A stretch of DNA of 64,000 nt from Escherichia phage SUT_E520: sequence record OQ990040, one strand, 5' to 3'. Below the pieces are notes generated by a model, which ran no database searches, had not been told where the DNA came from, and saw nothing but the letters and a program-made list of their open reading frames with translations. Shown piece by piece: positions 3,626 to 16,697 of the stretch (positions are counted from its first letter, which is position 1; every line of letters begins with the position of its first letter). A program made the position numbers and the translations under genes.

Positions 3626-3700
3626 TGGCCGAGGTGACAGGATTCGAACCTGCATAAAGGAATTTAGAAGACTCCTGCCTCTCCCTTAGACTACACCCCG
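3626..3700 (-). tRNA. tRNA-Arg (anticodon UCU); CCA encoded
   Basis: Reverse complement folds as acceptor CGGGGTG/CACCTCG, anticodon stem GGAGT/ATTCC with loop CTTCTAA, T arm GCAGG-TTCGAAT-CCTGT, 3' GCCA. Confidence 0.75.
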
Positions 3701-4202: not shown

Positions 4203-4274
4203 TACCGACCGTAGGATTCGAACCTACATCTTCCACCAGTTACGGCTTGATAATACCAATTATACTAGGACGGC
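4203..4274 (-). tRNA. tRNA-like element, possibly degenerate; anticodon not resolved (CGU is one possible reading)
   Basis: Perfect T arm GTAGG-TTCGAAT-CCTAC and 6/7 acceptor pairing, but irregular D and anticodon arms and no encoded CCA. Confidence 0.35.
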
Positions 4275-11969: not shown

Positions 11970-12502
11970 TAATAAGTAACCAATTCCTGTACAAATCGCA
12001 GGCTGTTATCACTGTTTGCGCCAGTTGCGTAAACTAAACGAGTAGATTCATAGTTGTAATCTAGAATCGTATTATCCAGATATACATCTGCCTCTAGTTT
12101 TTGATTACTAAAGATTGTGGATACAAAAGCACTTTCAATATGACCATATTGATACATTTCTAGAAGAAGGTTAGCACCACCTAGAACTACTGTCTGCTGA
12201 TCTTTCAGAAATGTAGGTAAAGCATCCCCAATCTTAGAAATTGGGGTGTAAATATCATGTGTAATATCATCTGGCAGTGGACGATCAGCACGAATAAATA
12301 GGTCAGAAGCTCCAATCATACGTTCTCTAACGGCGTATGGAAGAGCTAAATAAGTACCCGCACCAATGATGATGTTATCTGGATTCAACACGTCCAGTTG
12401 AGAATAGAAAGCATCTAGTTCTTCTTTGAAGGAACCCCATGGAAGTTTACCGCGGAGGCCGAACTCCCCATTCGGCCCAACTGCATACATTGCTGTAATC
12501 AT
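11969..12502 (-). CDS. frd: dihydrofolate reductase
   Basis: [23 protein letters not shown]-terminal DHFR signature; adjacent to thyA. Confidence 0.8.
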
Positions 12503-13644
12503 AAGAAATCTCCAAATTCATTACCCAGATCTTTCAGAGTATCAGTAGAGGTCTCAGTTACCTGACCTACACGGTAGGCTGCACCAATCTGGATTTCTTG
12601 TGGAGCAGGCTGTAGAGAAGTAGTATCCAACCAGTTCATAATCCACGGAATAGGGTTTTTGGTGATTACTGGTAAATGACTAGGCCATTCTACACCGATG
12701 TGCATAAATGCATTACGTCCCACAAAATACAGATATTCTTCTAGAAGTTCTGCATTCAAGCCAATCAGACTACGACCTTTGAAAATGAAATGACCCCATT
12801 CAATTTCAGTTTTCAGAGTTTTCAGGAGCTGTGCTGGTGCTTTAGCCACTGCTTCATCTACCAGATCTTTGTCAAATTGCTGAAACATAATCTGGATGAT
12901 TGCTTTGGACATCTGAGTGTGCAGAGCTTCATCTTTAGCGATTAATTGCAGATTTTTAGCAATACCTTGCAGAATATCGTTCTCTGCTAATGCAAAGGTA
13001 CATGCAAAGGATGCGTAAAACTGCATTGCTTCCAGACCATAGATCGCAAAGTAAGCGTCTAATAGTTTAGCCTGAGTTTCACGTTTAACTTCAGGGAACT
13101 CAGTTTCTGGATATGTATTGTCGCCACGATGATCGCGTACTGCGATGAAATACTGACCTAACTGGTACAGTTCATCGAATAGTTCAACAGAATCAGCGAT
13201 GCGCGCGAATGCTTCTTGGTTTTTGGTTACAGAATCAATAAATTCTGCTGGATCAGTCAGCACATTACGAATAATATTGCTATAAGCACGACTATGCAGG
13301 TCTTCAAAATAGCTCCACTGTTTGAGCATACCTTCCAATTCTGGACGACTTACAAGCGGCATAATAGCTGCTTCAGGGGCACGACTAATAAAGGAATCAG
13401 TTTGAGTTTGCCATGCTAAGTTCAGGAGTGTAATTTCCTGAATTTCTCGTGGGAGATTAGGCCATTGTTTCTTATCTGCTTCCAGACTGATTTCAGTTTC
13501 AGTCCAAAATTGAGAGCGCTGCAGAAGTGCCAGACGTTCTAGTTCTGGATGTGCTACACGTACATAATCTGCGATACCGAGAGAATCTCCCAGGAAAAGG
13601 TCGGCGTTAGTATGATCCCAATTCAGGTTTAGTAAAGTAGTCAT
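12499..13644 (-). CDS. nrdB: ribonucleotide reductase class Ia small subunit
   Basis: Di-iron ligand motifs including KDEALHTQ; 381 aa; upstream of nrdA. Confidence 0.85.
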   Translation of the reverse strand: MTTLLNLNWDHTNADLFLGDSLGIADYVRVAHPELERLALLQRSQFWTETEISLEADKKQWPNLPREIQEITLLNLAWQTQTDSFISRAPEAAIMPLVSRPELEGMLKQWSYFEDLHSRAYSNIIRNVLTDPAEFIDSVTKNQEAFARIADSVELFDELYQLGQYFIAVRDHRGDNTYPETEFPEVKRETQAKLLDAYFAIYGLEAMQFYASFACTFALAENDILQGIAKNLQLIAKDEALHTQMSKAIIQIMFQQFDKDLVDEAVAKAPAQLLKTLKTEIEWGHFIFKGRSLIGLNAELLEEYLYFVGRNAFMHIGVEWPSHLPVITKNPIPWIMNWLDTTSLQPAPQEIQIGAAYRVGQVTETSTDTLKDLGNEFGDFL

Positions 13645-13675
13645 TGATTTTCCTCTTTCTCACTATTTCAGGAAT

Positions 13676-13704
13676 ATTATAGCAAATCTGGTAGCGATTA
13701 GCAA
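13676..13704 (-). promoter_or_regulatory. sigma70-type early promoter (TTGCTA-17-TATAAT) upstream of nrdB
   Basis: Minus-strand hexamers at 17-nt spacing. Confidence 0.6.
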
Positions 13705-13710
13705 GTAAAA

Positions 13711-14193
13711 TTATAAACTATCAAGCTCCAATAGTTTAGCATCGCGCCATTCTATAGCATCCTCTAATTCTTTGAATGTTTTAGTATGTTTTACACCTTT
13801 TCTAGCAATCTGGACTTGGTAAGATCCGCTTGCTTTTTGGTGTATATTCTTAATACCTAACTTATTGTCTTTGTGCGCTCCGACATTCTTTCCATTGTTA
13901 AATCTATCAGATGCTAATAAATTAATTGCTCTATTATCATGACGTATTCTGTTGTCATGGTCTACTTCTTTTGGAATGTATCCATGAGTGATATAGAATG
14001 CTAGGATATGTGCATAGTATTTTTTACCCCTTACTTGCATTACTATATACCCTGAGCATTTTTCTAGAGAACCTGCTTCTTTGCCAGCAAACTTAGTATT
14101 AAAGGATTTATCTTCTCTAGGTTTGTGGGTAAAGATTCCAGTTTCTGGATTATAGTCAAATAACCCAGCTATTTCTTTATATTTTTCTTCCAT
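13711..14193 (-). mobile_element. HNH homing endonuclease gene inserted between nrdA and nrdB
   Basis: 160-aa ORF with YYAHILAFYITHGYIPKEVDHDNRIRHDNRAINL HNH motif; weak RBS; free-standing between the RNR subunits. Confidence 0.7.
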
Positions 14194-14223
14194 AATCTAA
14201 AATTACAGCTATGATAGGCCTAA

Positions 14224-14247
14224 TAAAGGGGCTTTCGCCCCTTATTT
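14224..14247. terminator. GC hairpin terminator (AAGGGGC-TTTC-GCCCCTT)
   Basis: 7-bp stem flanked by T-runs on both strands. Confidence 0.55.
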
Positions 14248-14248
14248 A

Positions 14249-16582
14249 TTATAATTGACAACCACCGGATGCACATCCAGCAGCAGCTTCTTCACCTGCA
14301 CCTCCACCATTTGCAGTATTGAAGTTTGCATAGTAGAAAGTTTTCCACCCATACTTAACAGCAGTCATGAAATCACGAACTACTACTGGGCCAGGAATGA
14401 TTTCATTCTCAAACTTGGTGTAGTCATAGTACATATTCGTACTGATAGACTGACTGAAGAATTTCTGCATAGTTGCTACCCACTTGATCCACTCGATACG
14501 ATCTACATCATAAGCCAGTTTATAGCTCATTAACGTTTCCCAATCGGTTGCACCTGGAGCAATTGCAATTACTTTATTTACTGCACTACCCTTGATAGAT
14601 ACAATCTTACGAGGTGGTTCGATAGAGTTAGTAACACCTAACAGAACAGAAGAACTTTCTCCCGGCATCTGAGCAGTCAGAACAGAGTTACGCATACCAT
14701 ATTTCAGAATATCTGCACGCAGAGACTCCCAATCCATTTCTAGACCTACGGATACCAGTTCATCAACAGTTTTCTTGTACGTGTCGATTACCAGAATTCC
14801 TTTAGATGGTTTAGTACGATCAAACCACTCACATGCACCCTGTTCTTTAGCTAGGCGTACAGAGGCTTTATGCAGGAAGTAAGACAGTTTTTCAGCCTCA
14901 CGGTGAATCCAGTTACGAGCTTCAATACCTTCATAAGCCAGACCTTCTGCTGCCATTGCACCTGCTGCGTTCATCAGGCCAATACCAACATTACGACGTT
15001 TCTTAGCCGTATATTCCATAGTTGGGAACGGATAATCCTGAATTTCAATAATTGTATCAACGAATTTCAGAAGGATGTAGCAAGTTTTTTCCCACTCAGC
15101 CAGAGATTCCATGCGTCCAAGTACAACACCGCCTAAGTTACACAGAGATACTTCACCAATATCCTCCGGCTTCATTTGATCAAGTTGTTCTTTTGTTTTA
15201 TACAGTTCCGTGATATGATGGAACGGGCGTGTAGGCTGAGTAATTTCAACACAAAGGTTTGTCATACGGATCGGATCAAGGAAGTTACCGTGACGATTAG
15301 ATTCCCCGATGTGATGAGCATACATACGTCCTGTTTCCATTCGGATACGTAGCCAAGTATCTAGGATTTCTTTTGCAGAGACTTTAGGAGCTGCTGGAAC
15401 TGTTTTTCCTTCGTGGTCGATCTTTGTAAGAGATGCCACACGTTTCTCCGCTGCCACGTAGATTTCTTCAAATTTAGCCTCGTCATCACTATAAAACGCT
15501 TCATGAACTTCTGGAGCATAGAAGTATGACATTAGCGTAATATCTTCGTTTTTAAGATAACGTTTTAACAAAAGATTGTTAAAGCTCAGAGAATAGTCCA
15601 TCTTATCGATTTTATTCTCATCTGTAGCACGTTGTTGCTTAACCTGCATCAATTGAATGATTTCAGGGTCGAAGTACGTATAAGACACTGTGGCAGAACC
15701 ACCACGAGTTTGCTGAGTATTGGCCTTTACTGAGCGGTCAATGTGTCGATAATATGGCAGTTTTCCGGAATGCGGGAATGCCCCATTTCGCACCGGATCA
15801 GCAATTGATCGGCTTTCAAGATGATACCCGATTCCCGCTCTGGCTGCGACCATTTTGAAGACGATGTGCTCGGCGGTGTCGATTGAATCCAACGTGTCAG
15901 TGGAATCCACGAGGCAGCAACTAGCAAATCCACGGTCACTAGAGCGCAGACCAACCAGTGGCGGCGTAGGAATGTTGATTTTGTGGAGTGACATTGCGTT
16001 GTAGAGGTCGATTGCATCTAGAATTGTCCAGTTAGGTTGAGATAACATCGCCATTGCCATACCCATGTAGGCAAACTGCGGAGTTTCATAGATTTCACCA
16101 GTGGCTATGTTACGACGGGAATACTTATCAAAGAACTGTTTCAGCCCACCACTAGTAAAAAGACGGTCACGATCATGGTCGATAACCTGATTCAGAGCTT
16201 CAAATTGCTCATCGGTAATCCATGCACTCATGTCTTCCCATGCACCTACGCTAACCATATGGTCATGGAAGAAGCGCAGAGAAGGTGGTTCGAAGGAATC
16301 ATAGAGGCGTTTACGCATTTGCGCAAGACGTAATTCCTTTGCTGGCACATCATATGCTGGATTATCTTTGATAAGACTTTCAGCAGCTTTAATTAATGCA
16401 TCCATCAGAGTGTCGGAATCTACAACCCCTTTAGGCAGAGTTTTTTGAGCAGCCATAGTAATGGCTGACCAACTTACATCAACTGTTTTGCAACCATACT
16501 CCGCCCAACCATTGAGTTTTTCAGGAGCAAAGTCTTCTACAGTACCGTCACGTTTAATTACTTTTTCAATGCGATGGCTCAT
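14249..16582 (-). CDS. nrdA: ribonucleotide reductase class Ia large subunit
   Basis: ORF track 14249..16687; start moved to MSHRIEKVIKRDGTVEDF (ATP-cone) behind RBS AAAAGGAAAG, downstream of the terminator. Confidence 0.9.
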   Translation of the reverse strand: MSHRIEKVIKRDGTVEDFAPEKLNGWAEYGCKTVDVSWSAITMAAQKTLPKGVVDSDTLMDALIKAAESLIKDNPAYDVPAKELRLAQMRKRLYDSFEPPSLRFFHDHMVSVGAWEDMSAWITDEQFEALNQVIDHDRDRLFTSGGLKQFFDKYSRRNIATGEIYETPQFAYMGMAMAMLSQPNWTILDAIDLYNAMSLHKINIPTPPLVGLRSSDRGFASCCLVDSTDTLDSIDTAEHIVFKMVAARAGIGYHLESRSIADPVRNGAFPHSGKLPYYRHIDRSVKANTQQTRGGSATVSYTYFDPEIIQLMQVKQQRATDENKIDKMDYSLSFNNLLLKRYLKNEDITLMSYFYAPEVHEAFYSDDEAKFEEIYVAAEKRVASLTKIDHEGKTVPAAPKVSAKEILDTWLRIRMETGRMYAHHIGESNRHGNFLDPIRMTNLCVEITQPTRPFHHITELYKTKEQLDQMKPEDIGEVSLCNLGGVVLGRMESLAEWEKTCYILLKFVDTIIEIQDYPFPTMEYTAKKRRNVGIGLMNAAGAMAAEGLAYEGIEARNWIHREAEKLSYFLHKASVRLAKEQGACEWFDRTKPSKGILVIDTYKKTVDELVSVGLEMDWESLRADILKYGMRNSVLTAQMPGESSSVLLGVTNSIEPPRKIVSIKGSAVNKVIAIAPGATDWETLMSYKLAYDVDRIEWIKWVATMQKFFSQSISTNMYYDYTKFENEIIPGPVVVRDFMTAVKYGWKTFYYANFNTANGGGAGEEAAAGCASGGCQL

Positions 16583-16661
16583 TTGGCTTTCCTTTTTATA
16601 GTTATCAGGATTTAAGGAATATTCTACTTTATTATCGGTCATTAGGCAAATAAAATTTTCT

Positions 16662-16697
16662 GATAGAAAAGGCCCGAGTATTTTCATACCCAGGCCC
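16662..16697 (-). terminator. intrinsic terminator between phoH unit and nrdA
   Basis: Minus-strand hairpin GGCCUGGG...CUCGGGCC with wobbles, followed by UUUUCUAUC. Confidence 0.55.

Follow-up and report, generated by a model that had tools for sequence, protein, structure and literature searches.

The analysed window is a stretch of 64,000 nucleotides from Escherichia phage SUT_E520 (sequence record OQ990040). It contains two RNR genes, nrdA (14249..16687, minus strand) and nrdB (12499..13644, minus strand), both confirmed by Pfam. The spacer between them holds an open reading frame (ORF) of 483 nt (13711..14193, minus strand), which starts with ATG, ends with TAA and encodes a 160 aa endonuclease of the HNH_3 family. 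The ORF lies wholly inside the spacer, and both nrdA and nrdB are full-length with complete Pfam coverage. Genes for dihydrofolate reductase and thymidylate synthase come next after the nrd genes on the same strand according to Pfam; the score for dihydrofolate reductase is sub-threshold (17.3 bits, curated cut-off 25). The initial annotation had placed a promoter, an HNH ORF and a hairpin at positions 13676-14247, and these coordinates bracket all three features correctly.

Searches with the predicted protein confirmed that an HNH endonuclease is encoded between nrdB and nrdA. The ORF matched Pfam HNH_3 (PF13392) with an E-value of 1.6e-8 and 34.5 bits (cut-off 24.8), residues 59-95 corresponding to profile positions 1-39 of 46, and PHROG 99 ('HNH endonuclease') with an E-value of 1.1e-49. 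All 8 aligned homologues matched HNH_3 as well. An alignment with homologues down to 33% identity revealed that D78, H79, N91 and N103 are invariant, and the motif D78-H79...N91...N103 is intact in the SUT_E520 ORF. The lack of nuclease motifs on alignment had been named beforehand as an argument against a homing endonuclease; the alignment showed them to be present and conserved. We take this motif to be the Asp-His...Asn...Asn form of HNH that is typical of HNH_3, with the Asp-His pair as general base. The C-terminal ~50 aa of the ORF align with a region of distant homologues that scores as an AP2-type domain (PF00847). This domain was matched in three of the 8 aligned homologues (best E-value 2.4e-5), and for one homologue a PF00847 match is precomputed. 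In the SUT_E520 protein itself no AP2 match was detected even at E-values up to 10.

Structure prediction was limited by the number of related sequences, as a word-indexed protein search returned 7 homologues, too few for a good structure model. The AlphaFold2 model obtained from the resulting 8-sequence alignment has a mean pLDDT of 63.6, with residues 77-124, which comprise the catalytic region, below 50. A Foldseek search of the PDB with this model gave nothing below an E-value of 1, the model being too poor for this result to carry meaning, and a PDB sequence search with the ORF protein gave a chance match only (E-value 0.72). No HNH paralogues were found in the 64-kb window, so the gene is not a member of a local HNH gene family. 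On these profile and motif matches, the ORF is a free-standing gene of the HNH_3 branch within the His-Me finger nucleases, with predicted nuclease activity. A search of the window with Rfam detected no intron. The same search revealed a third tRNA at 4203-4274 (minus strand; 35.5 bits, gathering score 29), which is not listed by ARAGORN; the tRNAs reported by ARAGORN in the window are tRNA-Ser (2-90) and tRNA-Arg (3626-3700).

A promoter with ten of twelve consensus matches (TTGCTA-17-TATAAT with a TG extension; 13704..13676, minus strand) begins 6 nt past the HNH stop codon, and the same sequence is labelled as a T5-consensus promoter in the AKFV33 record. Since it lies downstream of the HNH stop codon, it serves nrdB and not the HNH gene. 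It is followed by the 5' leader of nrdB (13645..13675, minus strand) with a strong Shine-Dalgarno (SD) sequence, AGAGGA. On the other side of the ORF, a hairpin (AAGGGGC-GAAA-GCCCCTT; 14226..14243, minus strand) separates the nrdA stop codon, which it closely follows, from the HNH ATG, and is succeeded on the coding strand by an interrupted T tract, TATTAGG. The HNH leader (14194..14225, minus strand) comprises 32 nt without an SD sequence and without a promoter-like site on the coding strand, and no promoter was found on this strand between the hairpin and the HNH ATG. The flanking promoter and hairpin described in the initial annotation are thus both present, but the promoter belongs to nrdB and the HNH gene itself is promoterless.

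The weak translation signals that had been noted for the ORF were borne out by the anti-SD duplex energy, which is +0.4 kcal/mol for the HNH gene compared with a median of -5.8 kcal/mol among the window's 42 ORFs with a length of 150 aa or more; a signal as weak as this was seen in about 5% of them only. The SD-less leader is conserved in all carriers. The hairpin probably acts as a leaky terminator which lets some nrdA transcripts into the HNH gene, as judged from its sequence. From the lack of a promoter and of an SD sequence, we infer that little of the product would be made, from nrdA transcripts extending past this hairpin. Occlusion of the start codon by an RNA stem was also considered; the folded leader contains a weak stem with a z-score of only -1.8, and we do not claim such an effect.

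The SUT_E520 region is 100% identical to the corresponding regions of the T5-like Escherichia phages SUT_E1520 and SUT_E420 and 90-98% identical to those of many Tequintavirus and Epseptimavirus genomes (T5-like Demerecviridae). The comparison with insertion-free relatives that the initial annotation had proposed revealed the insert in 47 of ~442 phage records that hold the nrdB promoter and spacer (about 10%), counting it as present when at least 80% of its length was matched. In 43 of the 47 carrier records the encoded protein is at least 90% identical to that of SUT_E520, and in four it is a ~77% variant. The remaining records have either an empty spacer of 106 bp or, like T5 with its gene hegH, a different HNH gene 30 bp away. 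An ORF present in all relatives had been regarded as evidence against a mobile gene, and the gene is found in this minority of records only.

For a finer classification, we gathered 40 distinct loci from IMG/VR and GenBank and assigned each spacer to a class. It is empty in 15 loci, with 106-107 bp from the nrdA stop codon to the nrdB ATG. An HNH gene of the SUT_E520 type occupies 13 loci, which include members of both Tequintavirus and Epseptimavirus, and a 75-78% identical variant was found in the same slot in three (phages H8, S124 and phC17). The other nine loci carry HNH_3 genes whose products are 36-44% identical to the SUT_E520 protein and belong to at least three lineages, namely T5 hegH, the Th1/AKFV33 type and one more. 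Salmonella phage STWB21 has another gene annotated as 'HNH homing endonuclease' in its nrdA-nrdB spacer, which matches in four short pieces amounting to 34% of the query and is probably a further lineage or a mosaic.

The location and distribution of the gene bear on a different assignment within the HNH proteins of phages, which have several roles. The protein could be packaging-associated and act with the terminase, or it could be the enzyme that makes the nicks of T5-type genomes, as T5-like genomes carry site-specific nicks (PMC10644984). Yet the gene belongs to an early nucleotide-metabolism operon and is not located near the terminase. It is also absent from most T5-like phages including T5, whose HNH protein at this place is 36% identical, so that a function shared by the whole group cannot depend on it. 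We regard this assignment as very improbable.

Alignment of carrier and empty alleles defined the boundaries of the insertion. Towards nrdB, homology with the empty alleles breaks off at 13712/13713, where AATTTTAC closely precedes the -35 box; towards nrdA, it begins again at ~14244, with TAATAAA at the nrdA stop codon. An empty-spacer stretch of about 40 bp is replaced in the carriers; it holds the canonical nrdA terminator, a GGAGATCTTCGGGTCTCC hairpin followed by a clean T6 run. This terminator is found in all 24 non-carriers, whether their spacer is empty or filled by an HNH gene at the other position, and in none of the 16 loci with an HNH gene of the SUT_E520 type or its variant. A hairpin is nevertheless kept in every class of these carrier alleles, with differing stems and loops; the stems of the three classes are GGGGC/GCCCC, GGGGAC/GTCCCC and AGAGGGTTA/TAACCCTCT.

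The comparison of carriers and non-carriers further revealed an HNH-linked haplotype in the tail of nrdA, which covers the last ~45 nt and the stop codon (14249..14296, minus strand). It contains an extra GCT codon for alanine, giving a NrdA of 812 aa instead of 811 aa, has GGA-TGT/C at a place where non-carriers nearly always have GGT-TGT, and ends with CAA-TTA-TAA. This haplotype is present in 11 of the 13 carriers, which represent both genera; the 27 other loci all lack it (Fisher p 3e-8, in a test that ignores phylogeny). FGS017 and Kenya-K44, whose HNH proteins are 92% identical to that of SUT_E520, share a tail haplotype of their own, and the three variant carriers, with 77%-identical HNH proteins, have yet another. 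Two loci with an empty spacer (L013 and L008) are 98-100% identical to SUT_E520 along nrdA except for its last 60 nt, in which the density of mismatches exceeds that of the 940 nt before them by a factor of 10-20. Over the empty alleles, the enrichment of mismatches in these last 60 nt corresponds to odds ratios of 2-22, with about 10-22 in the closest ones. The nrdB side shows no difference linked to the HNH gene of the SUT_E520 type. The nrdA tail is a candidate for a co-conversion tract, for a set of polymorphisms that confer immunity to cleavage, or for both.

The linked signal resides in the extra alanine codon, in GGA-TG and in the CAA-TTA codon choice. The C-terminal dipeptide QL of NrdA (in place of TI) was considered as a further carrier-specific character and rejected, because QL also occurs in empty alleles. 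Non-carriers differ among themselves in this tail as well, their NrdA ending in TI, QL or NL. Across T5-like phages in general, the last two nrdA codons encode TI, QL, NL or TL, and the alanine run before the C-terminal Cys pair of NrdA varies in length from 2 to 4 residues. For a redox-active end this tail is unusually plastic, which may be a by-product of repeated attack by homing endonucleases.

All 13 copies of the SUT_E520 type are intact, with a length of exactly 483 nt and no internal stop codon. An apparently truncated gene of 330 bp in chee130_1 turned out to be an annotation difference only, the ORF being intact there. Among the carriers of this type, dN/dS summed over pairs is ~0.04, which reflects strong purifying selection and indicates an actively maintained gene and not a decaying passenger. 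Between SUT_E520 and the Epseptimavirus carriers, dS of the HNH gene is ~0.53, compared with 0.38-0.43 for nrdA and 0.65-0.69 for nrdB, and the proteins differ by 3-4 amino-acid changes. Since the divergence of the HNH gene between the genera is about that of its flanks, the gene appears to be old and to have partly co-diverged with its hosts, and much of its history is compatible with vertical descent and loss. In FGS017 and Kenya-K44, in contrast, dS of the HNH gene relative to SUT_E520 is ~1.0, with flanks at 0.11-0.26, which points to a cassette that has been exchanged separately from the genome around it. Of the 75%-identical variants, those of S124 and phC17 are intact and that of H8 has an in-frame stop codon, between KYT and TFQ of its translation. 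The H8 copy may be decaying, or its old sequence record may contain an error.

These data allow us to weigh the possibility that the gene is an inert remnant, which was once mobile and is now passed on vertically and lost at random without any current activity. Its expression, lacking both promoter and SD sequence, may be negligible, and its distribution could partly reflect loss. A remnant would, however, be expected to accumulate stop codons, frameshifts and non-synonymous changes. The uniform length of the 13 copies does not agree with this, nor does the finding that, at a dS of 0.5, only 3-4 of ~40 differences are non-synonymous while the catalytic residues are invariant. We consider such a remnant very improbable.

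The same constraint would fit better with a domesticated nuclease, which has lost its homing and benefits the phage, either by cutting competing T5-like genomes or host DNA or by binding DNA as a regulator of the nrd operon. A dN/dS of ~0.04 across a divergence as deep as the split of the genera, the lack of broken copies in the 13 carriers and the similar between-genus divergence of gene and flanks are all in line with domestication. Against it, ~90% of the close relatives live on the same hosts without the gene, there is a turnover of at least four other HNH lineages in the nrdA-nrdB spacer, and the alleles of FGS017 and Kenya-K44 are discordant with their flanks. The H8 variant with its in-frame stop codon also speaks against it. 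Moreover, a nuclease that cuts competitor genomes does mechanistically what a homing enzyme does, and this part of the proposal therefore overlaps with our main explanation. As an account of its own, domestication seems unlikely to us.

We therefore favour the explanation that the ORF is a free-standing HNH_3 homing endonuclease gene lodged in the nrdA-nrdB spacer of T5-like phages, and we consider it likely to be correct. It draws on the patchy distribution of the gene, the exact boundaries of the insertion, the linked nrdA tail, the discordant divergence and the presence of several HNH lineages in the same spacer. On this comparative evidence, the reading as a mobile homing gene that had been put forward in the initial annotation is supported. 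In a carrier, read-through of nrdA transcription past the hairpin combined with poor translation initiation would yield little HNH protein and thereby limit its toxicity. When carrier and empty-allele phages infect the same cell, the enzyme would nick or cut the empty allele; the predicted site lies in the interval from the last ~50 nt of nrdA, where the conserved C-terminal Cys pair is encoded, to the canonical terminator. The recipient would then acquire the HNH gene together with its hairpin and the nrdA tail by recombinational repair, with the carrier genome as template. Carriers themselves would be immune, since in their own genomes the target stretch has been replaced or changed. With the nrdB promoter right after the HNH stop codon, expression of nrdB would remain independent of the insertion. 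A search of the literature found no report of activity, cleavage site or biased inheritance for the SUT_E520 HNH protein or a close relative.

For almost every step proposed here, phage T4 provides an experimental precedent in mobE, a gene between nrdA and nrdB that is promoterless, co-transcribed with nrdA and damped by a terminator hairpin (PMC2790892); its product nicks nrdB of recipient phages (Wilson & Edgell 2009, PMC2790892). Both genes share the coding strand of nrdA and nrdB, lie in the spacer between them and encode small proteins (141 aa for MobE, 160 aa for SUT_E520). Both are promoterless and depend on upstream transcription of nrdA, which in SUT_E520 is deduced from the arrangement of signals. 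In both systems a hairpin or terminator is confined to the carriers, the nrdB promoter is placed such that nrdB expression survives, and the gene is patchily distributed among relatives. Flanking sequence is co-converted in T4 and appears to be so in SUT_E520, judging by the linked tail. Homology of the two proteins, in contrast, was rejected. BLASTP detected no similarity (E-value 0.87), and MobE belongs to the HNH family PF01844 whereas the SUT_E520 protein belongs to HNH_3 (PF13392). The resemblance is therefore functional and not genealogical. The systems also differ in the position of the terminator, which is inside the gene in mobE, whereas the SUT_E520 hairpin lies upstream of the ATG. 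The target of MobE is nrdB, whereas the linked haplotype in SUT_E520 points to the 3' end of nrdA and the terminator. Finally, MobE has been established by experiment and the SUT_E520 HNH gene is known from sequence alone.

Further HNH genes known from the same 106-bp spacer are T5 hegH (P-TflVIII) and the genes of AKFV33 and Th1, which also encode HNH_3 proteins and share the same overall layout. They are, however, inserted at a different place. The SUT_E520 gene resides upstream of the nrdB promoter, a position we call slot A. The genes of T5, Th1 and AKFV33 reside in slot B, between the -10 box of this promoter and the nrdB ATG, ~30 bp away from slot A; in SUT_E520 it corresponds to the nrdB 5' leader and is empty. 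In contrast to the SUT_E520 gene, the slot-B genes have a strong SD sequence and are transcribed from the nrdB promoter, and in the AKFV33/Th1 type the HNH stop codon overlaps the nrdB start codon (ATGA). They leave the canonical nrdA terminator in place, and each of them is linked to a divergent haplotype in the first 130-190 nt of nrdB rather than to the nrdA tail.

All 47 carrier records align in one piece across an empty slot B, and none of the 40 loci has both slots filled (Fisher p 0.006, uncorrected). We tentatively suggest that HNH homing genes compete for the 106-bp spacer, which would offer them two neighbouring insertion slots, with targets on opposite sides for the genes of the two slots; we regard this proposal as possible rather than probable. 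From the boundaries and linked flanks of the allele classes, the predicted cut site of a slot-A enzyme lies in the nrdA tail or the terminator, and that of a slot-B enzyme in the 5' end of nrdB.

Two phages, SP01 and 1-23, have an HNH gene of the SUT_E520 type in slot A and an empty slot B. The 5' ends of their nrdB genes (first ~190 nt) correspond to the divergent haplotypes that are otherwise seen only together with slot-B HNH genes. These alleles look like recombinants which arose after one homing gene had displaced another by gene conversion over the short interval between the slots. If so, they would offer a natural system, amenable to experiment, in which homing genes compete with and displace one another.

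The kind of element, its position and the annotation of the protein are already known from public sources. The AKFV33 genome paper describes an HNH gene, ORF96, between nrdA and nrdB and likens it to mobE (PMC3326045), and, according to the BF23 paper, local differences among T5-like genomes stem mainly from homing endonucleases (PMC10644984). Free-standing HNH endonucleases of this phage group were the subject of work from 2004, which is cited in PMC10644984 and PMC3326045. The same ORF is labelled 'hypothetical protein' in SUT_E1520 and SUT_E420 and as a homing or H-N-H endonuclease in EPS7, FFH1, SP01 and others. The label of the EPS7 copy, 'H-N-H endonuclease F-TflVI', is an annotation transfer by similarity and does not designate a characterised enzyme. 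The layout with two slots, the allele-specific linked flanks, the apparent mutual exclusion of the slots and the recombinant-looking alleles of SP01 and 1-23 may be new, though unsurprising.

As a representative of its kind, the HNH gene is well preserved but unremarkable and, taken alone, matters little. Its value is that of a clean natural data set, in which hundreds of near-identical genomes provide empty, slot-A and slot-B alleles with exact boundaries and with linked flanks for each class. This data set makes the mapping of target sites and experiments on the competition of homing genes straightforward. The gene is also a warning for the engineering or mixing of therapeutic T5-like phages, where it may drive a biased inheritance of the nrd region.

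Two further peculiarities were observed among the analysed loci. Salmonella phage SB6 contains a tandem duplication of 298 bp, which comprises the leader and the first ~90 codons of an HNH gene of the SUT_E520 type. It is annotated as a second 'homing endonuclease' and could be a real duplication or an assembly artefact. In Salmonella phage SP3, whose spacer is empty, nrdA forms a single frame of 4269 nt, compared with 2436-2439 nt elsewhere, and a LAGLIDADG_3 domain is inserted within its barrel domain. The insert very likely consists of one or two inteins, and RNR genes of T5-like phages would thus be invaded by yet another, third kind of mobile element.
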